Notes: a model not told the origin generated them from the letters alone. A stretch of 31,780 nt of DNA from Candidatus Shapirobacteria bacterium CG06_land_8_20_14_3_00_40_12 (GCA_002780135.1 PEWA01000052.1:1-31780); one strand, 5' to 3'; shown: positions 2,392-23,469, numbered from the stretch's first letter. Made by a program: numbers and translations.

Positions 2392-2397
2392 ATTTTA
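2392..2397 (-). promoter_or_regulatory. Putative -10 hexamer TAAAAT, 6 nt upstream of ftsA ATG (leaderless-type)
   Basis: - strand reads TAAAAT-TAACTC-ATG; same spacing recurs at other genes. Confidence 0.4.
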
Positions 2398-3462
2398 GAT
2401 GGTTTTAATGAGTTTGAGTAGTCTTAGATTTGATTTTGGTTTGAAGACACCGCGATAATATTCTATCCGGATAAGTTTTTCGATGCTGGAAAGGAGTAAT
2501 GGTGGGTTAAGTTTGGATTCTGGAATAACAGTAGTGATATCCGGAAGTTGCGCTTTAACAAAAGCAGCGTTCTTTATCTGCTCGTTCTGTTGGCTAACTT
2601 TTAGGGGTATTAAAATCGATTTAATTTTTAGGACGACAATTTCCTGACAAGTATTGGCCCCGGCACGGCTAATTATTAGAGAAGCGTGGTTTAAAATCCA
2701 ACCAATATCTTGATTGTCGATATAGGCAAGAGGTAAATAATTGGAGGAAGAATGAGATTTAAGTTTTTGGCCGCACTGATGAATAATAAAAAATTTTTTC
2801 GAAAGGAGAGGGAGAGATAATTTTGTTAGATTATTTATAAAAAATGATCCCTGATTGCCGCCAGTAATATATATCAGGGGATAATTTTTAATTTTTAATT
2901 TAAAATTTTTAAACTTTTTTGAATTAGTAGAAAATATTTCCCGACGGAGAAGGTTACCCGTAACAATAAATTTTTTTTTAAAAAATTTTATTGTTATTGG
3001 GAAAGATAGGGCAACCTTGTTGCAAAAGAGACTATTTATTTTAGTGGAGAGACTTAAAGTGAAGGTTTGCTCATGAGTAATGGATTTAACCTTATTAAAA
3101 TAACCAGCCACAATGACGGGAACGGAAACATAGCCACCAAAAGAGACTATAAATTCTGGTTTTAGAGATTTAATTAAATTAAGGGCAGAAAAAAAACCTT
3201 TCAGGATTTCCGGGAGACCTTTTAAGGTGTTAGGGAACCAACGTCGATCAAGTTTGCCACAGTTAATTCCAAAATACTTTATCCCCGCTTTGGGAATTAC
3301 CCTTGACTCGATGGCTGGAGTGGTGTTAACACTGGAGTTATAAATTCGGCCGATATAATATATTTCCCAAAGAATGTCCGGGTCAGATTGGAGTTGACGA
3401 ATAAATTCAATGGCGGGAGTGAGGTGAGTGCCGGTTAAAACGATTTTTTTTGAGATTGGCAT
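2395..3462 (-). CDS. murG: UDP-GlcNAc:lipid I GlcNAc transferase MurG (GT28)
   Basis: LTGTHLTP (degenerate GGTGGH motif), SFGGYVSVP, HEQT, TGN, ITGGNQGS, HQCG, ISRAGANT, ILIPL; follows ftsW. Confidence 0.9.
   Translation of the reverse strand: MPISKKIVLTGTHLTPAIEFIRQLQSDPDILWEIYYIGRIYNSSVNTTPAIESRVIPKAGIKYFGINCGKLDRRWFPNTLKGLPEILKGFFSALNLIKSLKPEFIVSFGGYVSVPVIVAGYFNKVKSITHEQTFTLSLSTKINSLFCNKVALSFPITIKFFKKKFIVTGNLLRREIFSTNSKKFKNFKLKIKNYPLIYITGGNQGSFFINNLTKLSLPLLSKKFFIIHQCGQKLKSHSSSNYLPLAYIDNQDIGWILNHASLIISRAGANTCQEIVVLKIKSILIPLKVSQQNEQIKNAAFVKAQLPDITTVIPESKLNPPLLLSSIEKLIRIEYYRGVFKPKSNLRLLKLIKTI
2882..2912. repeat. Tandem heptamer (AATTTTT)n tract, copy 1
   Basis: t-aattttt-aattttt-aatttaa-aattttt-aa; 30/31 identical to 9524-9554; encodes NFKLKIKN in MurG. 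Confidence 0.7.
2961..2996. repeat. Near-perfect 36-nt inverted repeat inside murG
   Basis: taacaataaa (2961-2970) pairs with tttattgtta (2987-2996); inner T/A runs also pair with one mismatch. Confidence 0.6.
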
Positions 3463-4549
3463 TAGGTGAGTATAACAAGGAGAGGTGTCGTTTTTCTATG
3501 TTTCTGACCAATCCAGCGGCAATAAAAAGAGTTAATAGGGATGAGCCACCGTAGGAAATAAAAGGGAAAGGGATGCCTGTTAGGGGAATTAGGGAGACAA
3601 TGGCGGAAAAATTTATTAGGGCCTGATATGAAAGCCAACAGGCAAATCCGGAAACTAATAGTTTTTCGAAGGGTTTGATGACAACTTTGGCCAACTTAAA
3701 AAGATAAACAACCAGGGATATGAAAAGGAAAATAAGACCACTTAGGCCTATAAATCCGGTTTCTTCTCCAACAATAGCCAAAATTGAGTCGGTACTGATC
3801 TTGGGTAAAAACTTATATTTTTGGTCGGAATTAGCAATTCCTTTTCCAGACCAACCGCCGGAGGCCAGAGAGATGATTATTTGTTGACGGTGATAGTTTT
3901 GGTTGGGATTTTCTTCCTGATTAAGAAGAGTTTTAAATCTGGCCAGTCGATAAGGTGAGAAAATAACCAGACCAATTCCTAAAACAAAAAATATAAGAAA
4001 AGTTAAAAAAAGGGGAAAGTTGGGACCACCTGAAAGATAATAGATAGAAAAAACAATGGCACCGATAAGAATGGCAGTGCTAAGATTAGGCTCAAAAACA
4101 ATTAGGGTAAAGGCAGGAATAAGAAAAAGAAAAAGGTTTTTGAAGGTTGATTGTTTGGGGTCGGCAAAAAGAGCGGAAAAAAATATAACCGAGATGAGTT
4201 TAAATATCTCAGACGGCTGAATATTTATGGGTCCAAGATCAAACCATCGTCTGGCACCAAGAACTTTTACTCCTAAACCAGGAATAAGAACTGCAATTAA
4301 TAATATGATCGAAAAAAGGTAGAAGTAAAATGAATATTTACGGAAAAATTCGAGATTTAAAACCGATGAGATTAGAAATAAAAGAAAGCCGATACCAACC
4401 CATAAGGCTTGTTTACGAAGGAAGAAAAAGGGGTCACCCTGACTGGCCTGGGCTTCGAAAAGCGATGAAACAGAAATAAAAAGTAACCCGATTATTACCA
4501 GTGAAGAAATGTAAAATAGAAGGGGAGAGCCGGGTTTAATCTTGCTCAT
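3407..4549 (-). CDS. ftsW: SEDS peptidoglycan glycosyltransferase FtsW
   Basis: Multi-TM; GARRWFDLG, IQPSEIFK, EPNLST, YRLARF, QIIISLASGGWSGKG, TDSILAIVGEETG, GIPFPFISYGGSSL. Start moved to ATG 4549 (MSKIKP), which overlaps the ATP-grasp stop; dcw position before murG favours FtsW over RodA. Confidence 0.9.
   Translation of the reverse strand: MSKIKPGSPLLFYISSLVIIGLLFISVSSLFEAQASQGDPFFFLRKQALWVGIGFLLFLISSVLNLEFFRKYSFYFYLFSIILLIAVLIPGLGVKVLGARRWFDLGPINIQPSEIFKLISVIFFSALFADPKQSTFKNLFLFLIPAFTLIVFEPNLSTAILIGAIVFSIYYLSGGPNFPLFLTFLIFFVLGIGLVIFSPYRLARFKTLLNQEENPNQNYHRQQIIISLASGGWSGKGIANSDQKYKFLPKISTDSILAIVGEETGFIGLSGLIFLFISLVVYLFKLAKVVIKPFEKLLVSGFACWLSYQALINFSAIVSLIPLTGIPFPFISYGGSSLLTLFIAAGLVRNIEKRHLSLLYSPNANLKKNRFNRHSPHSRH
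3469..3477 (-). promoter_or_regulatory. Putative extended -10 promoter TGTTATACT, 6 nt upstream of murG ATG, inside the ftsW 3' end
   Basis: - strand reads TG-T-TATACT-CACCTA-ATG. Confidence 0.55.
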
Positions 4550-5648
4550 TATGGAGATGTTTAAATATGGATGAATTAATTGATAGTGAAGATAATTGAT
4601 GACAAAAGATTTTAAAGTCATGATACTTTTTGGTGGTGACACAGAGATGGTTTTTTTGAGTAATTTCAGAACCGATTAAATGAGGATTACTGAAGCGATC
4701 TTCATCTGTTAGGTCGTTGATTTTGTCTGGGGCACAAAATTCCAAAAGGTGATAGAAAAAAAGTGGATTAAGATTGTTTTTAGTTTCAATGTCGGTGTAA
4801 AAGGCAAATGATGCAGTCAGGCGGGGATTACATTCCAAAAGGTACGCCTTATTTGAAGAGACCAAAAAGTCCAGTCCGAAAAAACCACGATAATTATAAG
4901 ATTTTAGGATTTTGGCAAAGTCGGAAGTGATTTTTTTAACCTTAGAAATGATTTTTGGAGAAGCTAAGGAGGGCCATTGGCGGCCAACGGTGGAAAAGGG
5001 ATTATCAGTTAAGGAGGGAATGCCGGTGTATTGAAGGGCCGGAGGGCTTTGAAGGAGGCCGCGGGTAGTCAAGCAACAGTTATTAAGCAGGGTGTAACCT
5101 TTTAGATTGGGAGAGATTTTAACCGGTGTGTGGCGGGGAATGATATTAAAAATAGTTTTTAAATCTTTGATCAAGTGAGTGCTGTTGCCGGCCCACCCAT
5201 GATGAGTTTGGATGACAAAAGGAAGGCTAAATTTTTTTGAGGCAACTGAGAGAAGTTTGGGTTCAAGTTGTCCGATGATAAAAGGAACCAAGGGTATGGA
5301 ATGTTTGGCAACGAGGGGAGAGAATTTAATTTTGTCTTCAAAAAGTCGATTAAGCGATGACAGATTACTAACCCTTATCCAGTTGTTTTTTTTACACATA
5401 AGATCGATTTTTGGTAGAGGTTTGAAGGGTATAATAGCCGCCCGATGGCCGGATTTAGTAGTGGTTTTTCGAATAAAATCGAGGGTTTCCGGTTGTGATA
5501 ACAAATAGCCACTATTTTTTACAGAGAGTTGGGGATTAAAAATGGGATAAAAATTAGAAAGACGGGGAAGATTGATATTTAAATACTTATCGACAACCAA
5601 AAAGAAAAAGTCGACTGGCAATTCCGACAAAGTTTTTTCTAAATTCAT
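4536..5648 (-). CDS. ATP-grasp amino-acid/peptide ligase, substrate unknown
   Basis: FEDKIKF, PFVIQTHHGWAGNST (Gly-rich loop), YRGFFGLDFL, YLLECNPRLTAS (E-x-N-x-R). ATGA overlap with upstream PLP gene; 14-nt overlap with ftsW start. Not Ddl-like in overall motif set. Confidence 0.8.
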   Translation of the reverse strand: MNLEKTLSELPVDFFFLVVDKYLNINLPRLSNFYPIFNPQLSVKNSGYLLSQPETLDFIRKTTTKSGHRAAIIPFKPLPKIDLMCKKNNWIRVSNLSSLNRLFEDKIKFSPLVAKHSIPLVPFIIGQLEPKLLSVASKKFSLPFVIQTHHGWAGNSTHLIKDLKTIFNIIPRHTPVKISPNLKGYTLLNNCCLTTRGLLQSPPALQYTGIPSLTDNPFSTVGRQWPSLASPKIISKVKKITSDFAKILKSYNYRGFFGLDFLVSSNKAYLLECNPRLTASFAFYTDIETKNNLNPLFFYHLLEFCAPDKINDLTDEDRFSNPHLIGSEITQKNHLCVTTKKYHDFKIFCHQLSSLSINSSIFKHLHNEQD

Positions 5649-6445
5649 CTTTTGGCTCCGGTCAATAAAATAACCGGGAAAGCACCAAGATTTTGAGTAT
5701 TGGCTATTTTTTGGTAACCGGCCAAAGTCAGGGCGCCCTCAAGGGAAGTTATTATTTGATTTTTATCAAGATAGTTCTGGGCGTTTAAAACGGCCTGATT
5801 CTGAACGACGACTCCCCCACCCCCACTTTGATTAATAGCCAGAAGAACTTGATTTTTCAGGGGTAAATATTTAACACCCAAAGCGTCAGTCAGATTATCG
5901 GTTTCAGGGATGAAATTTTGGTCGAAGGATGAGGCAATGGGGCAGAAACTGGCCGGCTGAACGGCATAGATTTTAACGTTTGAAGGCAGGCCCTGAGAGA
6001 TTCCCAAAAGGGTAGTACCACTGCCAACCGGAATGAATAGACTAGTGATTTCCGACAGCTGTTTTAATAATTCAAAACCGATTTGTTGATAGCCTAAAAG
6101 GGCAATGGGATCAGTAGATTGTCTAAGAAAATAAGCGTGGTTGGTTTTGGAAAATTTAATGGCGTCACTAATCGGTCGAGAGGATACAGTGAACGGATAA
6201 AGAAGTTTTAGTTTGGCTTTGGAGACATGGGGGGAAACAAAGATGTTTAAAGGGATTTTTGAAAGTTGGCAGTAATGTTGGGCAGAAATGGCGGCATTAC
6301 CGGTTGAGGAGATAACCGCGGATTTGAAGTTTTTAGTAATCAAATTTTGAATTTGAAGCGAAATAGCTCTGTCTTTGGCGGAACCGGTGGGATTTTGATC
6401 TTCCCTTTTAAAATAGACTGAATTGTTTTTTAGAAGAGGTGTCAT
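5645..6445 (-). CDS. PLP-dependent fold-type II enzyme (threonine synthase/cysteine synthase/serine racemase-like)
   Basis: KREDQNPTGSAKDR (PLP lysine), SSTGNAAIS, IPVGSGTTL phosphate loop, ILLTG. Short (266 aa); no thrA/thrB in the window. Confidence 0.85.
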   Translation of the reverse strand: MTPLLKNNSVYFKREDQNPTGSAKDRAISLQIQNLITKNFKSAVISSTGNAAISAQHYCQLSKIPLNIFVSPHVSKAKLKLLYPFTVSSRPISDAIKFSKTNHAYFLRQSTDPIALLGYQQIGFELLKQLSEITSLFIPVGSGTTLLGISQGLPSNVKIYAVQPASFCPIASSFDQNFIPETDNLTDALGVKYLPLKNQVLLAINQSGGGGVVVQNQAVLNAQNYLDKNQIITSLEGALTLAGYQKIANTQNLGAFPVILLTGAKR

Positions 6446-6476
6446 ATAATAGACTATTACATTTTAATATATAAAG
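6446..6476. promoter_or_regulatory. 31-bp divergent intergenic region with back-to-back putative -10 elements and a 13-bp palindrome
   Basis: + strand TAATAT (6465-6470) 6 nt before ATG 6477; - strand TAGTCT (6451-6456) 5 nt before ATG 6445; TAATAG-A-CTATTA palindrome 6447-6459. Confidence 0.45.
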
Positions 6477-6632
6477 ATGGAAAAAGTAATTTGTCCTGAT
6501 TGTCAGGTAGAAATAATAAGCAGTAATCCAATGGTGGTTGGAGACATTTTAGAATGTAGTGAATGCGGAACAGAAGTGGAAATTATTTCTTTGACTCCAC
6601 TGAAGTACCAGGTATTGATTGAAGAGAAGTAA
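6477..6632 (+). CDS. LysW-like Cys4 zinc-ribbon small protein (51 aa), not in the ORF track
   Basis: Hand translation: MEKVICPDCQVEIISSNPMVVGDILECSECGTEVEIISLTPLKYQVLIEEK*. CPxC...GxIxxCxxCGxExEIxSLxPL matches the LysW pattern but ends in EEK, not EDWGE. -10-like hexamer 6 nt upstream. Confidence 0.8.
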   Translation: MEKVICPDCQVEIISSNPMVVGDILECSECGTEVEIISLTPLKYQVLIEEK

Positions 6633-7167
6633 GTCGGTAGACACCATCAATTTTAATGTTTGGTTGGGAAAGGAAAAAGGTAGATATTTTAACCCCATGG
6701 CCATCACGGCGACTGTCAACGAAGGTAACAGTATCACCGAGTCGATTAATTATAAAGAGGATATGGCGACCGTTTTTTTGTCGAATGAGATCACCGGTAC
6801 GAATATTGTCGAGCTTAATAGCGGTTGAGAGAGGCGAAGAAGTTAGGTGGTTGGCAGAGGTTTTTCGGGGATCAAGCGAGAGTGAGAAGTAGAAATTCAA
6901 TAACTGACAAGCCAGGCCAGAACAGTCAATACCAATATGATGTTTTTTTTGGAAGTTATAGATTTGGACAGTGGTCAAATTAGGTAATTTAATGTTTTCC
7001 TGATTGGCAATTTCAAGAGTGGTTTGAGCGATGTCGTGGGCGGAACCTTTACCTACCAGAGCATTATTGGTAGAAATGTTTTTATGTATTCCTTGGTTGC
7101 AGAAATAAGGAAGATTTTGATATTTATTAACTTCCTTAATAAGAAGATCTAATTTAGTCCCAGCCAT
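6583..7167 (-). CDS. NlpC/P60-family cysteine peptidase (no obvious signal peptide)
   Basis: GIDCSGL catalytic Cys motif (6917-6928), TGDLI, GRHILFI (His), FVDS (possible Asp). Start set to ATG 7167, which overlaps the mraY stop; the 3' end overlaps the antisense LysW-like gene by 50 nt. Confidence 0.75.
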   Translation of the reverse strand: MAGTKLDLLIKEVNKYQNLPYFCNQGIHKNISTNNALVGKGSAHDIAQTTLEIANQENIKLPNLTTVQIYNFQKKHHIGIDCSGLACQLLNFYFSLSLDPRKTSANHLTSSPLSTAIKLDNIRTGDLIRQKNGRHILFIINRLGDTVTFVDSRRDGHGVKISTFFLSQPNIKIDGVYRLTSLQSIPGTSVESKK

Positions 7168-8183
7168 AGGCCAAAGATTGCTAATATAATAGTAGCTAGC
7201 CAAGCCCGGAAGACGATCTTTGGTTCTTCCCAACCAATTTTTTGCAGAGTGAGATGTATCGGAGCTGCAGGGAAAACTCTTTTCTTAAAATAAATTTTGG
7301 AAACCATTTGAATAGCGCTGCTTAGGCCTTCAACAATAAAAGGAAGACCAACAATGATAAGAGGTACAATTTTACCTAAAAGCAGAGCGATAACAGCAAA
7401 AGTGGCCCCAAAGGAAAGTGAGCCGACATCACCCAACCAGATGCGGGCAGGAAAGATATTAAAATAAAGGAAGGCAATTAAGGCTCCAATCCAGAGTGAA
7501 ATAAAAAGAGAGATGGGGGTGTCCATAGAAGAACCAGCTAGAATCCAAAAAGCAAAAAGGGAAATCATGAGGATGCCACCGGACAGACCATCGAGACCAT
7601 CACTAATATTAAAGAAATTGGCAAACGAGGTGATAATGACGGCGGAAATGGGAATAAAAAAAAGTCCAAGATTGATGGCACCAATAAATGGCAAGTAAAT
7701 AAAATTAATCCCCAAACGGAAAAACATTAAGGAAGAAGCGATAACGGCTAATAGTATTTGAAGAAATAATTTGTATTTTAAACGTAGGCCGAAGAATCCG
7801 GATTTTTTAAAACCAAAAAATTTAAAAATATCATCATAGAGTCCAAGGATGCCGAAACTAATAAAAGTAAAAAAGATGACTTCAATTTCGTGATTGAGCC
7901 GGAAATTGCTGGAAATAAATATTCGGGAGAATGTTAAAATAGGAAAAAGGAAGGAAAAAAGAATAACCACGGATAAGATAATTAACAATCCCCCGCCGAC
8001 AGGAGTACCGGATTTATCATGGTGAAATTTATCAAAAATAGGGGTCCGGTGATTTTGAAAATCAAGAGTTTTTTGGCAACGTCGTTGAAATTTTAGGCGG
8101 TAAAGAATATTGATAAAGGGAATGACTAAAATACTGGTAGTAAAAAAGGAGAATAGGAGAAGGCCGAGGTAAAGATGTGCCAT
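7149..8183 (-). CDS. mraY: Phospho-MurNAc-peptide translocase MraY
   Basis: KSGTPVGGG, GLYDD, NISDGLDGL, NIFPARIWLGDVGS, APIHLTLQKIGWEEPKIVFRAW. ATG 8183 chosen; TTG 8192 is an alternative start. Confidence 0.92.
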   Translation of the reverse strand: MAHLYLGLLLFSFFTTSILVIPFINILYRLKFQRRCQKTLDFQNHRTPIFDKFHHDKSGTPVGGGLLIILSVVILFSFLFPILTFSRIFISSNFRLNHEIEVIFFTFISFGILGLYDDIFKFFGFKKSGFFGLRLKYKLFLQILLAVIASSLMFFRLGINFIYLPFIGAINLGLFFIPISAVIITSFANFFNISDGLDGLSGGILMISLFAFWILAGSSMDTPISLFISLWIGALIAFLYFNIFPARIWLGDVGSLSFGATFAVIALLLGKIVPLIIVGLPFIVEGLSSAIQMVSKIYFKKRVFPAAPIHLTLQKIGWEEPKIVFRAWLATIILAIFGLWLGLN

Positions 8184-8188
8184 GGTTT

Positions 8189-9517
8189 TCAAGTTTTAAT
8201 ATACTCTATTTGGGCTCCTAATGATTTAAGACGGTCAGCTAATTTTTCATAACCCCGTTCGATGTATTCAACATTGTCAACAATTGAGATACCGGTGGCA
8301 GTTAAGGCAGCCAGGGTGGTTGAGGCGCCGGCCCGCAGATCATTGATGACAAATTTGGCTGGTTTAAGTTTTACCGGACCGTAGATTTTAACCCCATGGA
8401 AATATTGAGGGCTATCGTTTTGAGGGTTGAATTCATAGTAAGATTTTGGATTAGTAACGATTGGATTAAAATATTTGACCTTTAGGCCCATTTTTTCCAG
8501 GTTGGTAATATGTTGGAAGCGGGAGGGATAAACCCGTTCGATAATTGAGCTGACACCAACAGCCTGGGTTAGGAGAACGGAAAATACGGTTTGCCAGTCA
8601 GTCATAAAGAAGGGTTCCGGACCGGTTTCAATGTTGATAGATTTTAAAGGTTTATCCCAAGATACAGTAACTTCGTCCTTGCCGGAAACAATTTTTGCTC
8701 CCATAGTAGAAAGAGTTTCTAAAAATGTCGTAATAATTTTAGGGTCGGTACGAAGAATGTTAATTGAGCCTTTAGTTAGTAGGGCGGCGCAGGCAAAAGT
8801 GACGGTTTCATTGCGGTCGGCGATAACCTGATGAGTGGTTCCTCTCAAGCTATCAACACCGTCAATGATAATGGTTTGAGAAAGTTTGGGATCACGATAA
8901 ATCCTGGCTCCCATGGAGTTAAGCATGACAATCAGATCGTCGATTTCAGGTTCAAGGGAAGAATTGTTTAGGATAGTTTGTCCTTTGACAAGAGTAGAGA
9001 TCATTATTAGTACTTCGGTGACAGTGTGGGAAGGTTTTGGAAAAGAAAAAACAGTTGGTTTGATTTTTGAGGCGGAAAAATGAATAGTGTCATCAGTAAT
9101 TTTGGTGGTGATTCCCATTTTATGGAAACATTCAAAAAGACGATCCAAAGGGCGGGCTCCGAGTTTGTCGCCACCGGGAGTGGGTATAGTGGCCACACCT
9201 GTTCGTAAAAGTAAAGGGGCGGCAAACATAAATGAAGCCCTGGATTTTTCACCGGTGCCATGGGGTACGGTGGAGGAAAAAAGTTTTTTGGTAGTAATTT
9301 CCAGGGAATGTTCGCCGATAGGTGAAATTTGACTACCGAGACTTTCAGCAATACTTTGGGTAATTTTTACATCTGATATTTGGGGTATATTTGAAAGCTG
9401 GGTTGTTTTATCGCTTAACATGGAAGCAATAATTTGTTTAAAACTGGCATTTTTGGCACCACGAATAGATACTTCTCCACAAAGAGTTTTGCCGCCGGTT
9501 ATGATGTAACGGGACAT
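8189..9517 (-). CDS. murA: UDP-GlcNAc 1-carboxyvinyltransferase MurA (Cys-to-Asp active-site variant)
   Basis: GAKNA, SRAS, PGGDKLGARP, EPEIDDL, DRNE, TDWQ, IERVYPSRF, DLRAGA, IERGYE. Confidence 0.95.
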   Translation of the reverse strand: MSRYIITGGKTLCGEVSIRGAKNASFKQIIASMLSDKTTQLSNIPQISDVKITQSIAESLGSQISPIGEHSLEITTKKLFSSTVPHGTGEKSRASFMFAAPLLLRTGVATIPTPGGDKLGARPLDRLFECFHKMGITTKITDDTIHFSASKIKPTVFSFPKPSHTVTEVLIMISTLVKGQTILNNSSLEPEIDDLIVMLNSMGARIYRDPKLSQTIIIDGVDSLRGTTHQVIADRNETVTFACAALLTKGSINILRTDPKIITTFLETLSTMGAKIVSGKDEVTVSWDKPLKSINIETGPEPFFMTDWQTVFSVLLTQAVGVSSIIERVYPSRFQHITNLEKMGLKVKYFNPIVTNPKSYYEFNPQNDSPQYFHGVKIYGPVKLKPAKFVINDLRAGASTTLAALTATGISIVDNVEYIERGYEKLADRLKSLGAQIEYIKT

Positions 9518-9522
9518 AGTAG

Positions 9523-10833
9523 TTAATTTTTAATTTTTAATTTATAATTTTTAATTATTTGTTTGAAGGTTTTTAAACCGGTTAAACCTCCGGAACTAAA
9601 GTGAACCAAAACATGGCCGGGGTTAAGAGACGACAAAACTGAATTTTTAAGATCGGAGTAAATGGGCAGATAATTAAGTTTAGCACCAAGATGGAATTTG
9701 TAATCGAAGGAGGTGGTTCGGACTGATTTGGGGAGATTGGAAGTAAAAGAAAGTTTACCTAGAAACACCTTAGCGGCCGGCCCAAAAGAGTCAGCAACTT
9801 TCCCCAGCGAGGATTTATATTGAAGGAAACTAGCTTGGGCTTCAAAAATTACCAGAATAGTTTTTCCGGGATGAAGTTTTTCGAGAGCCAAAAGACTTAC
9901 TTTAATACGGTGAGGTGACTGGGCAAAATCATCGTAGAAATAAGTATTTTTTACGATTGATGTTAATTCAAGCCGGCGTTTGATTCCTTTAAAACTTTGC
10001 AGGTTAGTTTTAAAAAATTTTTGACTTATTCCTAAATTAGTACAAAGAGTATGACAGGCAGCCAAATTGTTTTGATTATGGTGGCCAAAGAGAAAGGGAT
10101 GTTGGTGGTGGTATAGGGAGTAGTCAACACACTTACATTGAGCATATTTAATCAGAGATTTTATTGAGGGATCCTCTGAGTTGTAAATCAGGAGACCTTC
10201 AGGGGGGAGACGTTTAATTAAATTAATAAAACTGAGTCGATTTTCAGATTCACTTTTGTATGAGTCGCGATGCTCCCAGGAGGACGAGGTAAGAACTAAA
10301 TATTTTATTGGGTAGTAAAGGAATTTAGCCTGAGTGTCTAAACCGTTTATAGATTCATCAGCCTCAACTATCGACCAATCGGATTGAGCAAACTTAAGCG
10401 AGGGGAAATGATTCAAACATTGGCCGCCAATAAAATAGGAAGGATTGAGCTTGCTTTTGGTTAAAATCCAGGCCAGAACAGCGGAAATGGTAGTTTTACC
10501 GTAGCTTCCGGCAACCAGGATGCTATTTTTATTAATTAATTTAGTAGCGAGATATTGAGTGGCAGAGATGTAAGGAATTTTCTGGCTTTGGAAAAAACGA
10601 AACTCAACTTGTGTATTTTTGAATTTTTTATAGGCAGAGCCAACGATAACCAGATCGGGAGAGATAGAATCAAGTTTGGGGTTAATCGAAATATGAGCTC
10701 GGTGAAGAATTTGGCTAAAAGGAGGATAAATATGGTTTTGATCGCTGCCGGTAACGGTGTGTCCACTTTTTTTTAAAGCTAGAGCCAGAGGAGTGGTCAT
10801 AGTGCCGCTAATTGCCAAAATATGAATTTTCAT
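9523..10833 (-). CDS. Mur ligase of MurC/Mpl type, closer to Mpl (murein peptide ligase) by motif recall
   Basis: MKIHILAISGT, GSDQNHIYPPFS, PDLVIVG, VAGSYGKTT, FIGG, VEADE, KFLYY, GIKRRLE, YDDFAQSP, SSGG all parallel E. coli Mpl segments. Start set to ATG 10833 (ATGA overlap, GGAGG 5 nt upstream). Confidence 0.8.
   Translation of the reverse strand: MKIHILAISGTMTTPLALALKKSGHTVTGSDQNHIYPPFSQILHRAHISINPKLDSISPDLVIVGSAYKKFKNTQVEFRFFQSQKIPYISATQYLATKLINKNSILVAGSYGKTTISAVLAWILTKSKLNPSYFIGGQCLNHFPSLKFAQSDWSIVEADESINGLDTQAKFLYYPIKYLVLTSSSWEHRDSYKSESENRLSFINLIKRLPPEGLLIYNSEDPSIKSLIKYAQCKCVDYSLYHHQHPFLFGHHNQNNLAACHTLCTNLGISQKFFKTNLQSFKGIKRRLELTSIVKNTYFYDDFAQSPHRIKVSLLALEKLHPGKTILVIFEAQASFLQYKSSLGKVADSFGPAAKVFLGKLSFTSNLPKSVRTTSFDYKFHLGAKLNYLPIYSDLKNSVLSSLNPGHVLVHFSSGGLTGLKTFKQIIKNYKLKIKN
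9524..9559. repeat. Tandem heptamer (AATTTTT)n tract, copy 2 (5 units)
   Basis: aattttt-aattttt-aatttat-aattttt-aattatt from 9525; encodes the C-terminal NYKLKIKN of the Mpl-like ligase. Confidence 0.7.
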
Positions 10834-11423
10834 AATTGCCTCCATTGATTTTGGGAAAAATATTCGAATCCAGGCATGTTCCTTTTATAGTATCCAATAC
10901 CCCGAACCTTTGCCTCGAAGCGGCCAAGATAACAATATTGTAATTTTTGTTGGTGGCTGTCAATGATTACCTGAAGGGTGAGGCGAATAGGGAGATTTGT
11001 TTTTGAAAGGGAGGGATTATAAAAGACATAAGCAATATGGGAAATGGTCTTTGAAAAATAACAGATAGAGTAAGCTACGACTTGGTTTTGATTATCCCTC
11101 CAAATATAGAGACGATTAAAGATGTGAGTTGAAAATACATATTTAACTGATGACACAGGAAAACTCCATCCAAGTTTCTTGATCCAATTAAAAATGGTTT
11201 TTTGAACATCAAGAGAAAAAGAAAAATTATTAAGAGGAATAACTTCTGAAAAATATTCTGTGGTTTTATTAAGAATCCGACGGTTTTCTGAACTTAGGTT
11301 AAATACAGACAAGTTGGAACGGCAACTGGTTTGAAAATAAAAAAGTTTTTTGGAATTCCGTTGAGGTAACAACCCATTTTGATAGTATTCTTTGATGGTG
11401 GAAAAATTATTTAAATTAAACAT
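10830..11423 (-). CDS. Aminoacyl-tRNA-dependent transferase of ATE1/Bpt type (GNAT-like), 197 aa
   Basis: YYQNG, SCR..L..F.LSSENRRIL.K, then AYVFYNP...TNLPIRLTLQVI...QKLQYCYLG...YYK...FEYF....W, resembling ATE_N/ATE_C segments. Start set to ATG 11423, an 8-nt overlap with the murE stop. Confidence 0.65.
   Translation of the reverse strand: MFNLNNFSTIKEYYQNGLLPQRNSKKLFYFQTSCRSNLSVFNLSSENRRILNKTTEYFSEVIPLNNFSFSLDVQKTIFNWIKKLGWSFPVSSVKYVFSTHIFNRLYIWRDNQNQVVAYSICYFSKTISHIAYVFYNPSLSKTNLPIRLTLQVIIDSHQQKLQYCYLGRFEAKVRGIGYYKRNMPGFEYFSQNQWRQL
10839..10843 (-). promoter_or_regulatory. Shine-Dalgarno-like GGAGG before the Mpl-like gene
   Basis: - strand TGGAGG-CAATT-ATG; the only clear SD I noticed among the starts inspected. 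Confidence 0.4.
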
Positions 11424-12642
11424 TTTGACTATGAGCCCTAAAAGCAGAATTAAAGGCTTCAGTTTCTGACCAGGGGTATTCGGTTTTGCCGTGAAGAATG
11501 GAGGTTTCGTGTCCTTTACCACAGGCGACAATGGTATCACCGGGATTGGCAATTTTAACTGCCAGACTAAAGGCATCTTGGCGGTTAAAAATGTTGTGAT
11601 AAAAAAACTTTTTTTGTTTGAGTTTGAGAGGGCTAAATCCGGAGATTATTTGTTGATTAATATCCTCAACCGATTCAGTGCGAGTATCATCAGCGGTAAC
11701 AATGGCGATATCGCAGTTTTCAGAAACAATTTTTCCCATTATGGGTCGTTTACTTTTATCGCGGCCTCCGGTGGCACCAAAGAGACAAATTAATTTACCG
11801 TGAGAATAAATGTTTTTAAGAGAGGTTAAAGTTTCATAGAGAGCATTGGGGGTGTGGGCAAAGTCAACAATGCAATTTAGCCGTAGATTATTTTTGACTG
11901 TCTCACGTCGTCCTTTGGTTTCAGGGAAATGGCGGACGGAGGCGATAATGGTGTCGGGATTTATTTTTAATTTTTGAGTCAGAGAAATCGCGGCGAGTAA
12001 ATTATATATTTGGTATTTATAAGGAGAGTCAGAGGTGTAAAGTTGCTTATTTAGAACAAAAGATAGAGAATCGGGGGTGATGGTTATATTTTTTGCCTGA
12101 AAATCTGATGGGTTTTTAATGGAATAGGTTGACAGATTTCCTTTTAAAAGTTTTTTTAGTTCCGAAAAATATGAATCATCAGCGTTGAGGATTTTGTACT
12201 TTGATTGGGAAAAGAGACGTGATTTAGCCAGAACGTAATTAGTCATGGAGTGATGATAGTCGAGATGTTCATGTGAAATATTGGTAATAACACCGACCTC
12301 AAAATGACAGCCAAAATAGCGAAATTGATCAAGAGCATGGGAAGTAACTTCGCAAATAACATGAGTGATCCCCTCTTTTTGGTATTGCCTTAGAAGTTGA
12401 AAAAAAGTTTTCGAACTAAAATTACTGGTGGTGTGAAGTCCGGGGCTATTAAGGGTGGTAATTGATTTGGTTTTAAGATGTGCCTCAGTTAAAATCTGAT
12501 ATATAAGATTGCAGGTACTGGTTTTACCGTCAGTTCCGGTTACCCCGATTAAAGTAAGGGATTTTTGGGGAAAACAATAAAAAGATTGCCAAAAAACGGT
12601 TCTCGGCAGATGCCAAAGATAGTTTTTAAGTTTTTGGAACAT
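11416..12642 (-). CDS. murE: MurE-type UDP-MurNAc-peptide ligase (short N-terminus)
   Basis: IGVTGTDGKTST, EVTSHALDQ, TNISHEHLDYH, GRRE, VDFAHTPNAL, FGATGGRDKSKRPIMG, TADDTR, ACGKGHE. Start set to ATG 12642. Confidence 0.88.
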   Translation of the reverse strand: MFQKLKNYLWHLPRTVFWQSFYCFPQKSLTLIGVTGTDGKTSTCNLIYQILTEAHLKTKSITTLNSPGLHTTSNFSSKTFFQLLRQYQKEGITHVICEVTSHALDQFRYFGCHFEVGVITNISHEHLDYHHSMTNYVLAKSRLFSQSKYKILNADDSYFSELKKLLKGNLSTYSIKNPSDFQAKNITITPDSLSFVLNKQLYTSDSPYKYQIYNLLAAISLTQKLKINPDTIIASVRHFPETKGRRETVKNNLRLNCIVDFAHTPNALYETLTSLKNIYSHGKLICLFGATGGRDKSKRPIMGKIVSENCDIAIVTADDTRTESVEDINQQIISGFSPLKLKQKKFFYHNIFNRQDAFSLAVKIANPGDTIVACGKGHETSILHGKTEYPWSETEAFNSAFRAHSQNV

Positions 12643-12673
12643 AAGGGGTGATTTATTATAACAAAGGGGTGAT
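12643..12673 (-). promoter_or_regulatory. Putative internal promoter for murE: extended -10 TGTTATAAT flanked by two 10-bp direct repeats
   Basis: - strand ATCACCCCTT-TGTTATAAT-AA-ATCACCCCTT-ATG; repeats at 12643-12652 and 12664-12673 (21-bp period). Confidence 0.55.
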
Positions 12674-14221
12674 CTTGGAAGCGATTTCAAACCAAACTGG
12701 GGCGGCGGTGGACGAACCCCAAGTTGAGAGTTGGGGCTTATTAAAAATAATAATCATGGAGAATTTGGGATTCTGGCAGGGGGAAAATCCAACATAAGAG
12801 GCGATGGTATCAGTGTCGGCATACTGGCCACTTTTAGCAATTTGAGCAGTGCCGCTTTTGGCACAAACTTCAATATTTTTTGGTTTTAAACTGCTAACAG
12901 CACCAGTTTCGACAGCATATTTGAGAATATTAACTACTTTATCGACGGTATCAGGGGCAAACACCGTACTTTCAGATAAGGGATTATTGAGATTAAAATG
13001 GGGAGAAACTAATTTTCCACCATTACCGAGAGTGTTGAAAGCCCGAAGCATTTGTAGTTCGTTGACAGCAAAACCCTGGCCAAAAGATGCGGTCGCCAAA
13101 TCAATATCAGACCAATATTTTTTTAAGGAAGAAGTTGATTCACCCAGTAGATCGACATTGGTTTTTTGATTAAGTCCCAAGAGGTGAAAATAACGCTGAA
13201 AGGAAGTTAAACCAAGTTTTTCAATAATATAACTCATAGCAATGTTGTCAGAGTTTTTGATGACATCAGGGAGATTTGAATTAGGGTGGGTTTTTTCGTT
13301 CCAATTATTTATAGTATATTGGCCATAGGTACGAGGTTTACCACAAACCGGACAAACAAAATCGAGTCCAATGCTATTTTCGTTTAAAGCCATAGATAGA
13401 ACCAGGGGTTTAAAAATTGAACCAGGTTCAAATAGGTAAGATATGGGTCGAAGAGATGAGCTTTGGGTAGAATTTTGAGGGACAGAGCTGATGGCGATTA
13501 TTTCACCACTTTGAGGATTAATTATAATGCCGGTAGCATTTTCAGCTTGAAAACGTTTTAGGCCAAGTTCAAGAGATGAGGCTAATATAGATTGAACTTG
13601 TCGGTTAAGACTGAGGGGAATGTCGGTACCATCGACTTCACTTTTGTGCCAGTTTTTGCGACTTAATATTAATTGTCCGGTAGCATCGACCGGGGCGACA
13701 GAAAAACCCACCTTTCCCGAAAGAGTTCGTTTATAAAAACTTTCGAGATTTAATAAAACATCTTTGGCTAAATTACCTTCCGGGTAATATCTTGACGAAA
13801 CCTCTTCGAAACTGACACCGGCTAAATCTATTTTTTTTACGTCTTGGCTGTAAAACTTGGTGGGTAGGGTGACCCACTTGATATTGGGTTTAAGAAAGAA
13901 TCCAATTTGTTTTTCGGATTCCAATTTAAGACCAGGTTTTATTTTTTCCAGATAGAGAAGAACATCCTCAAGTTTTCGATCAAGATTGGGTTTATAAAGT
14001 GACAAAAGATAAAAACGGGAATCAAGACTTAAGGGAAATGAGTCAGAAGCGAGAAGGTGGCCCAGATTAGGTAAAATTTTTGTTTGTTGATATATTTGGT
14101 TTAAACTACGGTTTCGGACTGTTTGCCCCAGATATATTTGCCAGTAAAAGAGGCGGAGAACGACAATTACAAAAGAAAAAATAATTGTAGTTTTTAGTAT
14201 AGATATTCGGTTGTTACTCAT
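12656..14221 (-). CDS. ftsI: Class B penicillin-binding protein (FtsI/PBP3-like)
   Basis: N-terminal TM anchor with LRLFYWQI, RYYPEG, transpeptidase motifs EPGSIFK (SxxK), SDN (SxN), KSGTAQ. Start set to ATG 14221, overlapping the ftsL stop. Confidence 0.88.
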   Translation of the reverse strand: MSNNRISILKTTIIFSFVIVVLRLFYWQIYLGQTVRNRSLNQIYQQTKILPNLGHLLASDSFPLSLDSRFYLLSLYKPNLDRKLEDVLLYLEKIKPGLKLESEKQIGFFLKPNIKWVTLPTKFYSQDVKKIDLAGVSFEEVSSRYYPEGNLAKDVLLNLESFYKRTLSGKVGFSVAPVDATGQLILSRKNWHKSEVDGTDIPLSLNRQVQSILASSLELGLKRFQAENATGIIINPQSGEIIAISSVPQNSTQSSSLRPISYLFEPGSIFKPLVLSMALNENSIGLDFVCPVCGKPRTYGQYTINNWNEKTHPNSNLPDVIKNSDNIAMSYIIEKLGLTSFQRYFHLLGLNQKTNVDLLGESTSSLKKYWSDIDLATASFGQGFAVNELQMLRAFNTLGNGGKLVSPHFNLNNPLSESTVFAPDTVDKVVNILKYAVETGAVSSLKPKNIEVCAKSGTAQIAKSGQYADTDTIASYVGFSPCQNPKFSMIIIFNKPQLSTWGSSTAAPVWFEIASKITPLL

Positions 14222-14411
14222 GAAATAAAGTGAATTTTTGGACATATTTTTGTTCCAGATTTTGGTTTAGATCTAGAAATTCCCGATATTTTTTTTGAAG
14301 CGCGGAAAAGTCGTGACTGAGTTTGACAATTTGACTGGAGTAGAAAAAAGAAAATAATAGTTGAAAGATGACTAGACTGATAGTGGCTGATAAAAGCAAT
14401 TGAGCGGGCAT
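14214..14411 (-). CDS. ftsL: FtsL-like small membrane/coiled-coil protein (65 aa)
   Basis: Single TM followed by heptad-like segment, located between rsmH and ftsI and coupled to both; call rests mostly on position. Confidence 0.55.
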   Translation of the reverse strand: MPAQLLLSATISLVIFQLLFSFFYSSQIVKLSHDFSALQKKYREFLDLNQNLEQKYVQKFTLFHE

Positions 14412-17108: not shown

Positions 17109-17676
17109 TATTATTAGTTAGGAGCCGACTACTTTGAAGAGGTTTTTCGAGAATGCTTTCAAAATAGGAAATAAGATCTTTTTGAACTAAGTGATATTTT
17201 TTGGCCAACAGATTTTGGCGAATATTGTCAGGAATGCCAAAACCTAGAGTTTCCAGAAAGTCGATTTGTCGGGAAATAAAGGGAACCAGATGATTTTGGG
17301 AAAGTTCGAGTATTATTTCTTTGGCTAAAAAAAAGATTTTAGGTGAACTCTCATTTTCAGAAGTTATGTTTTTAACAATTTCCAAAAAATAAAACAGGAG
17401 GTTTAATTGAATTAGTTTTTTTTGTTCAAACATGAATGAATTAGTAGCCAAACATTCCGACAACCAATAGATACCATTGTTTTGGCGAAGACTGATGTTG
17501 GTGATATTTCCTAACTGGAGATTGGCTCCACGGGAACTTTTTATTGATTTTACTCCGGCAGCTTTAACAATAATTTTGCCATGATTTGGAGTTAAAAAAG
17601 TAACCAAAATATCTTTCTCACCCCGGTTTTGAAGGTTGACAACTATGGCTTCAGTGCTGAATGATTGACCTATCAC
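17104..17676 (-). CDS. recO: DNA repair protein RecO
   Basis: STEAIV...GEKDILVTFLT..HGKI.V.A.GV.SIKSSR N-terminal OB-fold pattern; classic recO-glyS adjacency; GTG start overlapping the upstream TGA. Confidence 0.85.
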   Translation of the reverse strand: MIGQSFSTEAIVVNLQNRGEKDILVTFLTPNHGKIIVKAAGVKSIKSSRGANLQLGNITNISLRQNNGIYWLSECLATNSFMFEQKKLIQLNLLFYFLEIVKNITSENESSPKIFFLAKEIILELSQNHLVPFISRQIDFLETLGFGIPDNIRQNLLAKKYHLVQKDLISYFESILEKPLQSSRLLTNNI

Positions 17677-19607
17677 AGGGATAACTTGATGGTTTTATCG
17701 CTGACCCAATTGAAGGTTTCGGTACTTTTACCGTTGATGAAGATTTCGTATTCGACTCCTTTGGTGCCAGGTTGTTTTTGAAGGTAAAGAGTATAGTTTT
17801 TTGAAGCTTTGACACTACTTAAATATTGGAGGGTAACTTTGGAACTGGATTTAGCGTATAAGGGATACTTATTACCATAAAATCCCTCAAAAACCTGTTT
17901 ACCTAATTCTTCGTAGGAAAGAGTGTCAACCTCAGAGCCGGTCATCTTAATTAAACGACTACCGAGCGGGACATAAAAACGGAAAAGATCACGATATTTG
18001 GGGGCATTAAGACAGAGATCTCCCTTTTCTAAATTACAGTTTGAGGCCGGATTGGGGTTGGAATAGGTAATAGAGATTTTATGTTCAACACGGCCATCAG
18101 TTACAGAGATTTCATGTTTTATTTTTTGAGTGATAAAAATATTACTTTTGGCACTGGCAAAATTGGCGTCGTTGAGGTGAAAATAATCAGTATCGGAATT
18201 GGTGGAAACTATGTTTCCGGTAATATTGGCTAAAACAGCGGCTGTTTGCAAATCAGCGTCAGGAAAGAAAAAGAGAATGTGTTTTTCAAGAATATTTTTA
18301 ACAAAGGCGTCGGCCAGGAGTGGGATTTTAGTTTTTTCCGAACCCATAGCATTAGCCAGGAGAGCCTGCATTACCGGTGCCAAAAAGTCTTTACGGTTAT
18401 TTTCAATAAAGTTTCGGGGGCGACCGGAAATCCACTCCAGGTCGTAAATAATTTTGGGACAACCGTCACAACGCTTGTCGGGGTTGATAGTAAAAGTACC
18501 AACCCGGGTGTCAAGTTTACCCAGAACCCCGACTAAATCAACTAAAACATTAGTATCAAGGGCGACAACGGCGTCAAACTTGGTTCCTTTACCTATAGCT
18601 TTGTAATAGGCGTCAAGAAAAATCTGGGCATCGGTAGGAAAATCAGGGGAAAGATTGCTGTCGCGAAGGTTAAGATAAGGAACGTTAAGATGATAAGATT
18701 TGATTAGACGGGGGGCCGGAGTAACACTTTGGAGCTTGTCATCGAGGTCATAAATATTACTGGCAATTCCCGGGGTAACCTTGCCATTGTTCATTTTGAC
18801 GGTGGAATAGGCGGTCCAAAAACCGCCACTGGGTCTGAGTTCACCGTCGTTTTGAAAAATAACCAGATAGTTTCGGGGTTTATCTTTACCCAATAGCCAC
18901 GAAGTTTTGGTTAGAATCGGCTTACCGTCGGTAATTAATTTGTTGATTTGAGCTACGGTTTCCTTAAGTTGGTTGAAATTTTGATGAAGAGGCAAACCTT
19001 GGTAAATTTCCGGGTAACGGTTGATATCAATAGAATTTAAAGAATTTTCAATGTTCTTGATTTTATTTTCGACCAAATTAAGGTTGGGAAGCAGGCCTTC
19101 AATTGATCTGGTAAGAAAGGTAATTCGGTCTTCGGTAGTTTTGGCACTACTAGTGGCGGCTCCTTTTAATCCCAAAAAATCTTGGTAAGGTTTGACGGCT
19201 TCAATTACTATTAACCCAGTATCTAAACTATCATTGGCGATGGAAATTAGTTCCTGACCGTCCTGGTAATAATCTTTAATAAAGGGCAGAGGTTTTAGAT
19301 AGGACAAATCCGAATATTTATCGTCAATAGTTTTGATTTGACCTTTTAGATTATTAATAATGGTTTGAGTAAGTACTAGATCTTTATCAGAGACTGATGT
19401 TTTTAGCGATTCCAATTCGGTCTTTGCAACGACAACTAAAGACAATAAATTTTTACCCGGAAGATAAATAAAAAAGAAGCCGGAGAGGAAAACGATGATA
19501 AGAAAAAACAATATACTAAAGGGTATTAATAAGAACTTTTTTCTCTTGGATTTGACTTTAGGGGTTTTAGGTGTCGGAGCCGGAGTGATGGAGGAGGGCA
19601 TTTCCAT
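17673..19607 (-). CDS. DUF4012-domain membrane-anchored protein
   Basis: N-terminal TM, long helical region, RNYLVIFQNDGELRPSGGF, LRDSNLSPDFP, C-terminal beta-rich region with LQKQPG. Confidence 0.8.
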   Translation of the reverse strand: MEMPSSITPAPTPKTPKVKSKRKKFLLIPFSILFFLIIVFLSGFFFIYLPGKNLLSLVVVAKTELESLKTSVSDKDLVLTQTIINNLKGQIKTIDDKYSDLSYLKPLPFIKDYYQDGQELISIANDSLDTGLIVIEAVKPYQDFLGLKGAATSSAKTTEDRITFLTRSIEGLLPNLNLVENKIKNIENSLNSIDINRYPEIYQGLPLHQNFNQLKETVAQINKLITDGKPILTKTSWLLGKDKPRNYLVIFQNDGELRPSGGFWTAYSTVKMNNGKVTPGIASNIYDLDDKLQSVTPAPRLIKSYHLNVPYLNLRDSNLSPDFPTDAQIFLDAYYKAIGKGTKFDAVVALDTNVLVDLVGVLGKLDTRVGTFTINPDKRCDGCPKIIYDLEWISGRPRNFIENNRKDFLAPVMQALLANAMGSEKTKIPLLADAFVKNILEKHILFFFPDADLQTAAVLANITGNIVSTNSDTDYFHLNDANFASAKSNIFITQKIKHEISVTDGRVEHKISITYSNPNPASNCNLEKGDLCLNAPKYRDLFRFYVPLGSRLIKMTGSEVDTLSYEELGKQVFEGFYGNKYPLYAKSSSKVTLQYLSSVKASKNYTLYLQKQPGTKGVEYEIFINGKSTETFNWVSDKTIKLSL

Positions 19608-23453: not shown

Positions 23454-23469
23454 TTTTTATACAATTACT

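Follow-up and report, generated by a model that had tools for sequence, protein, structure and literature searches.

The division and cell wall (dcw) cluster of the ultra-small, uncultured Candidatus Shapirobacteria bacterium CG06_land_8_20_14_3_00_40_12 carries six inserted genes in positions where the canonical Mur pathway of peptidoglycan synthesis has others, and these six genes are the subject of this study. The whole stretch of DNA analysed (GCA_002780135.1, PEWA01000052.1:1-31780; 31,780 nucleotides (nt)), hereafter the window, is contig C16 of a 762-kb genome in 65 contigs that is 93% complete. Named homologues of its proteins, found in a protein atlas and by homologue search, come from Candidatus Shapirobacteria, Woesebacteria, and Patescibacteria. 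The cluster is transcribed in the order mraW, a 65-amino acid (aa) open reading frame (ORF), penicillin-binding protein (PBP)/FtsI, MurE, an ATE-like transferase, a MurC/Mpl-family ligase, MurA, MraY, an NlpC/P60-like peptidase, a fold-type II pyridoxal phosphate (PLP) enzyme, an ATP-grasp ligase, FtsW, MurG, FtsA, and FtsZ. All of these genes are on the minus strand, and the sole gene on the plus strand encodes a LysW-like carrier.

The gene for PBP/FtsI (12656-14245; coordinates are on the minus strand unless noted) is followed by that for MurE, the UDP-MurNAc-dipeptide:diamino acid ligase (11416-12690; NCBIfam TIGR01085, 323 bits, cut-off 257). Next come a 197-aa protein resembling the ATE/Bpt aminoacyl-tRNA-dependent transferases (10830-11423, with the longest ORF starting at 11576; PF04377, 22.9 bits, cut-off 25) and a divergent ligase of the MurC/Mpl family, called Mpl-like here (9523-10845; TIGR01082 murC, 176 bits; TIGR01081 mpl, 173.9 bits). 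MurA (8189-9517; TIGR01072, 394.5 bits, over the cut-off) and MraY (7149-8192; PF00953, 99 bits; TIGR00445, 158 bits, under its cut-off of 192) precede the NlpC/P60-like cysteine peptidase (6583-7167, ORF to 7233; PF00877, 21 bits, cut-off 23), the 266-aa PLP enzyme (5645-6445; PF00291, 140 bits), the ATP-grasp ligase, which is of an uncharacterised family (4536-5648; PF02655, 25 bits; PRK06524, 7e-22), FtsW (3407-4642; TIGR02614, 304 bits), and MurG (2395-3462; PF03033 and PF04101). The plus-strand gene at 6477-6632 encodes a 51-aa LysW-like zinc-ribbon carrier (PF21344, 36 bits, cut-off 27); it overlaps the 3' end of the NlpC/P60 gene by 50 nt, and a scan for promoters and terminators around it found nothing above chance. 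The order from murE to murG had been given in the original prediction, made from the sequence alone, and is borne out by profile matches and coordinates, as are the families it named for the inserted genes. The same is true of its stop/start overlaps at MurE/ATE, ATE/Mpl (16 nt), MraY/NlpC, PLP/ATP-grasp (4 nt), and ATP-grasp/FtsW, to which a 4-nt MurA/MraY overlap can be added. An antisense LysW-like gene had also been claimed and does exist, but the long ORF at 6656-6892 on the plus strand has no family match and was rejected in favor of the gene at 6477-6632.

Peptidoglycan genes elsewhere in the genome indicate which steps are missing. Mur-ligase domains occur in only three proteins: MurE, the Mpl-like ligase, and a MurF on contig C17 that adjoins a clear Ddl (TIGR01205, 260 bits) and alanine racemase (Alr). 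With MurB on contig C21, the genome holds MurA, MurB, MurE, MurF, Ddl, Alr, MraY, and MurG. Two further Ddl-like ATP-grasp genes are present besides the Ddl on C17 (C57:7215-7802 and C37:4891-5499; PF07478, 60 and 45 bits). At 93% completeness, the genome yielded no MurD, no glutamate racemase (MurI), no class IV aminotransferase, and no canonical MurC, the sole candidate ligase being under the MurC cut-off. The claim that only two Mur ligases are present is true for the window, but the genome has the third on C17. Because MurF, Ddl, and Alr are encoded on another contig, the murF step is not replaced as had been proposed, and sister families keep murF between murA and mraY, so that no replacement genes fill a murF slot; the missing steps are those of MurC, MurD, and MurI. 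In line with the original prediction, MurD was not found in the genome. A complete MurC-F/Ddl set elsewhere in the genome, which had been named as evidence against a new system, was found only in part: MurF and Ddl are there, but MurD and canonical MurC were not found.

Conservation of the cluster was examined in 20-kb stretches from 17 relatives of the same genus, family, and order, with ORFs mapped to the window proteins. The same gene order is found in at least 13 relatives at these levels and in other families of the phylum. It begins with mraW, ftsL, PBP, MurE, the ATE-like transferase, the ligase, MurA, MurF (in families f5 and f6), and MraY, and continues with NlpC/P60 (in families f1, f3, and f7), the opposite-strand carrier, the PLP enzyme, the ATP-grasp ligase, FtsW, MurG, FtsA, and FtsZ. 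The arrangement is not due to chance, and this synteny of the inserted genes with dcw supports the original prediction of an undescribed, conserved peptidoglycan-precursor system tied to the cluster. The sister family f2 has none of the inserted genes and has canonical MurC (TIGR01082, 358 bits) and MurD (343-353 bits) instead. A search of 41 close relatives found MurD over the cut-off in three f2 genomes only, and the ATP-grasp ligase in 36 of the others.

MurE itself is a short form, with the profile match starting at position 94 of 486 and most of the N-terminal UDP-binding domain absent, and has the specificity motif DDTR in place of DNPR. Short MurE proteins (400-440 aa) occur throughout the order, including the MurD-containing family f2, as at L048:4926-6173 and L049:8289-9494. 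The truncation was considered as a sign of a carrier-bound substrate and rejected, since f2, with canonical MurC and MurD, has an equally short MurE.

A sample of 301 genomes from the phylum was searched for the ATP-grasp ligase, PLP enzyme, ATE-like transferase, MurD, MurI, and class IV aminotransferase, and 24 further loci were inspected. The six inserted genes are two separable modules. Module 1 consists of the ATE-like transferase and the Mpl-like ligase, and module 2 is a trio of the lysine-ended carrier, the PLP enzyme, and the ATP-grasp ligase, usually with NlpC/P60. Loci of type A, as in the window, have MurE, the ATE-like transferase, the ligase, NlpC/P60, MraY, the carrier, the PLP enzyme, and the ATP-grasp ligase in variable order. 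Type B loci have NlpC/P60, MurD, the antisense carrier, the PLP enzyme, the ATP-grasp ligase, FtsW, and MurG, together with a canonical MurC (425 bits on TIGR01082) and no ATE-like gene. Type C covers ATP-grasp paralogues that occur singly at other places in the genome. One open frame of about 650-680 aa in G113 (L052; C36:7102-9156) contains both the PLP and ATP-grasp genes and may be a fusion; the contig ends inside it. In the type B locus of G091, an amidohydrolase (PRK09061 family, 162 bits) and the peptidoglycan editing factor PgeF (L057:3772-6098) sit between mraY and the block of NlpC/P60, murD, carrier, PLP, and ATP-grasp genes, and the amidohydrolase could be another release or deacylation enzyme.

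Each module excludes a different canonical gene. With MurD called at E <= 1e-45 and MurI at E <= 1e-25, the ATE-like gene is present in 15 genomes, none of which has MurD, whereas MurD is present in 233 of the 286 genomes without it. The trio (types A and B) is present in 29 genomes, 14 with MurD (all type B) and none with MurI; the 272 genomes without the trio include 219 with MurD and 114 with MurI. Fisher tests give p = 5e-11 for the exclusion between ATE-like gene and MurD and p = 7e-7 for that between trio and MurI, both values being overstated because they ignore shared ancestry among about a dozen families. One unpublished genome in the sample, G194, has MurD and MurI without the trio; leaving this genome out changes every tally by one and affects none of the claims. 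The exclusion of MurD by the ATE-like gene agrees with the anticorrelation that had been proposed as a check, and in five ATE-carrying genomes of other families checked directly, no MurC over the cut-off was found. The trio lies directly beside MurD in 14 genomes without an ATE-like gene, so the exclusion of MurD belongs to the ATE-like/Mpl-like pair, and the idea that the ATP-grasp ligase replaces MurD was rejected. The original prediction had treated the inserted genes as one system; in other lineages the trio coexists with MurD, and it tracks the absence of MurI and not that of MurD.

The position of the trio is also informative. The murI gene is directly beside murD in at least 20 of the sampled genomes (for example G146, G240, G255, G270, G045, G049, G077, G182, and G208), and the type B trio holds the place next to murD where murI often lies. 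Within family f56, G182 has murI beside murD and no trio, while its relatives G091, G116, G140, and G162 show the reverse, with the trio next to murD and murI absent.

Scores for the ATE-like protein on PF04377 (ATE_C) are marginal in the window but over the cut-off in G096 (30.0 bits) and P0185 (33.3 bits). Its predicted structure (pLDDT 92.5) matches only aminoacyl-tRNA transferases among the 50 best PDB matches, including ATE1 (TMq 0.69-0.76), MprF, alanyl- and lysyl-phosphatidylglycerol synthases, FemX, and Sba18, and the alignment keeps the ATE/Bpt-type motifs GFLPxR, LSSENRR, Y-YLG, YK, and GFE-F...W. Relatives and predicted structures likewise confirm the NlpC/P60-like fold. The ATE-like family has 383 cluster representatives (50% identity) at E <= 1e-10 among 1.84 billion. 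One member from a metagenome contig, P0187 (L076:8001-10430), is an 809-aa fusion of the ATE-like domain with a PPDK_N (ATP-grasp-type) and a PEP-utilizers swivel domain; its locus has a Mur ligase gene 5 kb upstream and no dcw cluster. Known acceptors of ATE and Bpt are N-terminal Asp or Glu. Aminoacyl-tRNA provides an activated carboxyl, and the acceptor must be an amine.

The partner ligase is under the curated cut-offs for both MurC (176 against 335.1 bits) and Mpl (173.9 against 388.7 bits). Ten other ATE-associated ligases fail both as well, with Mpl scores of 150-262. Its best sequence match in the PDB is 3hn7 (127 bits, against 94 for the best MurC), an entry labelled MurC in the search output that we take to be Psychrobacter Mpl. 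In a maximum-likelihood tree with a single Mpl reference and long branches, the ATE-associated ligases group together (92/89), with E. coli Mpl as their sister (98/98), and E. coli MurC and four Patescibacteria MurC fall outside this group. The description "Mpl-type" is apt in that the ligase is nearer to Mpl than to MurC in the tree, but not in the sense of passing a curated cut-off for either. The ATE-like and Mpl-like proteins are fused into one 645-aa protein in G030. The ATE-associated ligase of G128 (L054:13386-15473) has 695 aa, with about 250 residues beyond the three Mur ligase domains that have no Pfam match. Mpl is known for joining the free L-Ala amine of preformed L-Ala-gamma-D-Glu-meso-diaminopimelate (mDAP) to UDP-MurNAc.

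The carrier of module 2 passes the Pfam LysW cut-off but scores 31.6 bits on TIGR01206, under the cut-off of 53.2. All 14 of the order-level relatives compared keep two CxxC pairs and end in EEK, and the gene is on the opposite strand in every relative and type B locus seen. Across the phylum, in both types A and B, the C-terminal lysine is invariant (12 of 12) while the two preceding residues vary, with EEK, IQK, VQK, IEK, and EGK as the tail variants. Because of this pattern, the lysine, and not a glutamate as in LysW, is likely to be the business end of the carrier.

The ATP-grasp ligase has a confident model (pLDDT 92) that resembles only generic biotin-carboxylase, PurT, and PurK folds (TM 0.55-0.62), and its ExN Mg motif is invariant in the alignment. 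No specific relative could be named, since the fold search was generic and the atlas and homologue search returned only "ATP-grasp domain-containing protein" names. A predicted complex of ATP-grasp ligase, ATP, and carrier scores 0.53, with 0.00 for the best of three controls. When the method was calibrated, 58 of 80 solved complexes attained the pass mark, as did 2 of 110 mismatched pairs; passes at up to 0.60 count as weak, this one among them. In the model, carrier tail residues 46-51 would touch the invariant F75 and K76, the nearly invariant K80, and residues 148-150 and 171-175 of the ligase.

The PLP enzyme is minimal and threonine-synthase-like with the N-terminal domain missing, and is the sole PALP-family protein in the genome. 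The PLP lysine K24 in GSxKDR and the motifs SSTGN and GSGTT are invariant in 14 sequences. Among NCBIfam models it scores best on those for threonine synthase (100 bits, cut-off 358); threonine synthase, threonine deaminase, and serine racemase are all at about the same distance from it. The role proposed for it is that of a racemase or epimerase, or else of an enzyme that modifies the side chain, acting on the second stem residue. An ordinary threonine synthase was rejected: the score is far under the cut-off, the N-terminal domain is missing, and neither homoserine kinase (thrB) nor homoserine dehydrogenase (hom) was found in the genome, so the enzyme cannot be a housekeeping threonine synthase.

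Enzymes of the NlpC/P60 family cleave the bond between gamma-D-Glu and a diamino acid. The member in the window falls just short of the PF00877 cut-off, and one relative scores 60 bits; the cysteine of GxDCSG is invariant and the histidine nearly so. No hydrophobic N-terminus or export signal was seen in the alignment, and the peptidase is probably cytoplasmic.

The MurD proteins linked to the trio in type B loci differ from E. coli MurD at the substrate pocket. Work on D-Glu mimetics places one of their carboxylates at Lys348 and Thr321 of MurD and the other at Ser415 and Phe422 (PMC3527612). When type B MurD is aligned with E. coli MurD, T321 and K348 are kept, S415 is replaced by Gly or an aromatic residue, and the F422/R425 segment is lost. 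The first pair is presumably the alpha-carboxylate side of D-Glu, and S415/F422 the gamma-carboxylate side. Read in this way, the pattern would fit a substrate with a changed or blocked side-chain end, such as a Glu held by its gamma-carboxylate, or a different second residue.

Taken together, the cluster can be read as encoding two modules that stand in for MurC, MurD, and MurI in making peptidoglycan precursors, and we give this reading a slightly better than even chance of being right. It draws on comparative genomics and structure prediction: gene content, synteny, exclusions, one fusion, folds, and a weak predicted contact. Every substrate, attachment atom, and tRNA identity in it, as well as the order of steps, is a proposal. 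In genomes that lack glutamate racemase, module 2 would supply or present D-Glu, or something closely analogous, as the second residue of the stem. The ATP-grasp ligase would tie the gamma-carboxyl of L-Glu to the epsilon-amino group of the carrier's C-terminal lysine. Such a tether would leave the alpha-amino-acid end free for PLP chemistry, and the PLP enzyme could then epimerise this end, with NlpC/P60 later releasing the product from the carrier. In module 1, the ATE-like enzyme would move L-Ala from Ala-tRNA onto the alpha-amino group of Glu, and the Mpl-like ligase would attach the resulting dipeptide, through the free amine of L-Ala, to UDP-MurNAc. MurE in the cluster, and then MurF with Ddl and Alr on the other contig, would complete the pentapeptide. 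In a stricter version, the first two stem residues would be built entirely on the carrier by Glu loading, epimerisation, acylation with L-Ala, and joining to UDP-MurNAc before the NlpC/P60 cut; the lysine-linked dipeptide would mimic the tripeptide substrate of Mpl, and the peptidase would free UDP-MurNAc-L-Ala-D-Glu. This full scheme is doubtful.

Several observations weigh against the two-module replacement. The PLP enzyme is most similar to threonine synthases and not to racemases, its similarity to serine racemase being only comparable; the ATP-grasp ligase is not of the LysX/RimK type, and its predicted contact with the carrier is weak. The grouping of the ligase with Mpl depends on one Mpl reference in a tree with long branches. 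In families f5 and f6 the cluster lacks NlpC/P60. There are also exceptions to the pairing of genes: G096 has the ATE-like/ligase pair without the trio, and G093 has the trio and the Mpl-like ligase with no ATE-like gene detected, so the modules can separate. MurI is not recognisable in 113 of the 219 MurD-containing genomes without the trio, nor in the sister family f2; its absence is therefore common in the phylum, and the 0 of 29 for trio and MurI could partly reflect shared ancestry. A class IV aminotransferase was considered as a hidden source of D-Glu for the trio genomes and rejected, being present in only 2 of 29 and not found in the genome studied here. Few of the 113 MurI-less, MurD-containing Patescibacteria have one either.

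The most serious alternative, given that the PLP enzyme resembles replacement enzymes more than racemases, is that the carrier module makes some other wall amino acid and not D-Glu, either a non-canonical second residue or a position-3 diamino acid (for example one resembling diaminopimelate, by beta- or gamma-replacement). Known LysW systems make Lys and Orn, both of which are used at position 3, and the closeness of the PLP enzyme to threonine synthase and other beta/gamma-replacement enzymes, the altered side-chain pocket of the trio-linked MurD, and the DDTR motif of MurE would all suit such a product. The module, however, is found at or beside murD and not murE, and it is murI that it excludes. 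The cluster has no kinase, reductase, or aminotransferase of the LysW pathways, the genome yielded no route through homoserine or phosphohomoserine, and the short MurE also occurs in the sister family that lacks the module. This alternative is unlikely.

The two options offered in the original prediction fare less well than the replacement of MurC, MurD, and MurI. If the genes served branch or cross-bridge tailoring, the ATE-like enzyme would add a side-chain residue from tRNA to the stem as FemX or MurM does, and the ATP-grasp ligase would attach a D-amino acid made by the PLP enzyme as Asl does, with the stem core made by an unseen route. The location inside the dcw cluster is compatible with this, FemX is among the fold matches of the ATE-like protein (ranks 34-49), and an ATP-grasp ligase with an amino-acid-modifying enzyme resembles the pair of Asl and aspartate racemase. 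Tailoring is nevertheless improbable, as it leaves UDP-MurNAc-L-Ala-D-Glu without a route when MurD and canonical MurC are not found. It also gives no reason why canonical MurC and MurD should be lacking in just those genomes that carry the ATE-like/Mpl-like pair. The 0 of 15 co-occurrence with MurD, the fusion of the ATE-like protein with a UDP-MurNAc-type ligase, the need for a carrier protein, and the remodelled gamma-carboxylate pocket of the trio-linked MurD would also go unexplained. Salvage is the other option: muropeptides imported from a host or the environment would be cut to L-Ala-D-Glu by a cytoplasmic NlpC/P60 and re-attached by the Mpl-like ligase, bypassing MurC, MurD, and MurI (the prediction had included MurF), while the other genes edit or proofread. 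In its favor, the ligase groups with Mpl, a recycling enzyme, YkfC-type cytoplasmic NlpC/P60 enzymes cleave L-Ala-gamma-D-Glu-diamino-acid peptides, and this small genome (762 kb) yielded no source of D-Glu. The retention of MurA, MurB, MurE, MurF, Ddl, and Alr conflicts with salvage, as does the trio's accompanying a full MurC/MurD set in other lineages. The cluster has no peptide transporter, the NlpC/P60 peptidase shows the lowest conservation of all the parts, with two families lacking it in the cluster, and the most strictly conserved parts, namely the ATE-like, carrier, PLP, and ATP-grasp proteins (four of the six), would have no role. Salvage is, if anything, slightly less probable than tailoring.

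Upstream of the dcw genes in the window is a polysaccharide gene cluster (19625-29960) with a Bac_transf sugar transferase, a nucleotidyl transferase, five glycosyltransferases, an NYN-domain protein, and a Wzy_C-like membrane protein, and a DUF4012 protein is encoded at 17673-19607.

In accounts of bacterial wall synthesis, MurC, MurD, and MurI count as essential, nearly universal steps and as targets for antibiotics. If the two-module replacement is correct, then a large uncultured group makes the same intermediate by means of a tRNA-dependent transferase, an Mpl-type ligase, and a lysine-ended carrier, which would be a new biosynthetic logic in a textbook pathway. It would also mean new chemistry for the LysW carrier fold, with lysine as the carrying residue, and would explain apparent "gaps" in the predicted peptidoglycan pathways of Patescibacteria. 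The translation machinery would feed wall synthesis in a second case after the Fem enzymes, this time for the core peptide, and if the full carrier scheme were true, this would be the first core stem peptide synthesis that depends on both a carrier protein and tRNA. All six proteins are small and soluble, making a direct test in vitro feasible. No published description of the system was found in the literature on LysW and peptidoglycan, on MurC and MurD of the candidate phyla radiation, or on carrier proteins and threonine synthase.

Compared with the canonical Mur pathway, the frame of mraW, ftsL, ftsI, murE, mraY, ftsW, murG, ftsA, and ftsZ is the same, and the end product is probably the same; the difference is that canonical MurC, MurD, and MurI are not found and six other genes occupy conserved positions. 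In the E. coli dcw cluster, murD is located between mraY and ftsW, exactly where three of the inserted genes are found here. Mpl (E. coli b4233) is likewise a three-domain Mur ligase and would share the reaction type, the joining of a preformed peptide to UDP-MurNAc. The ligase studied here, however, is inside a biosynthetic cluster and always has an aminoacyl-tRNA transferase as its partner, in one case as a fusion, and its proposed substrate is a dipeptide, free or carrier-bound, in place of a recycled tripeptide.

The carrier resembles the LysW/ArgW proteins of Thermus, Sulfolobus, and Thermococcus and the AmCP of Streptomyces in having a zinc ribbon, an acidic tail, and an adjoining ATP-grasp gene. 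Those of the LysW type end in a Glu (EDWGE-type) whose gamma-carboxyl carries the amino acid, whereas the tail here ends in an invariant Lys. The ATP-grasp ligase is of another type than RimK/LysX, the cluster has no homologues of LysZ, LysY, LysJ, or LysK, and the partners are a fold-type II PLP enzyme and an NlpC/P60 peptidase in the context of cell-wall synthesis. The ATE-like transferase has the fold and the conserved YLG...YK...F.G.E..W motifs of ATE1/Bpt and FemX/MurM. The N-terminal Asp/Glu acceptors of ATE1/Bpt fit the Glu acceptor proposed here, and Fem enzymes already link tRNA to peptidoglycan. In contrast to ATE1/Bpt, the protein has about 200 aa and no ATE_N cysteine cluster. Unlike in either group, it would form the core L-Ala-D-Glu bond and not a degron or a branch, and it strictly co-occurs with MurD loss.

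An alternative installation of D-Glu at position 2 that needs no glutamate racemase has been described for MurD2/MurL of Xanthomonas, in which a MurD-type ligase adds L-Glu and a dedicated epimerase acts on the UDP-bound dipeptide (PMC8788868). In the genome studied here no MurD-type ligase was found, and there are a carrier, a PLP enzyme, an ATP-grasp ligase, and a tRNA-dependent transferase instead. MurD2/MurL is the nearest published alternative, but it is built differently.

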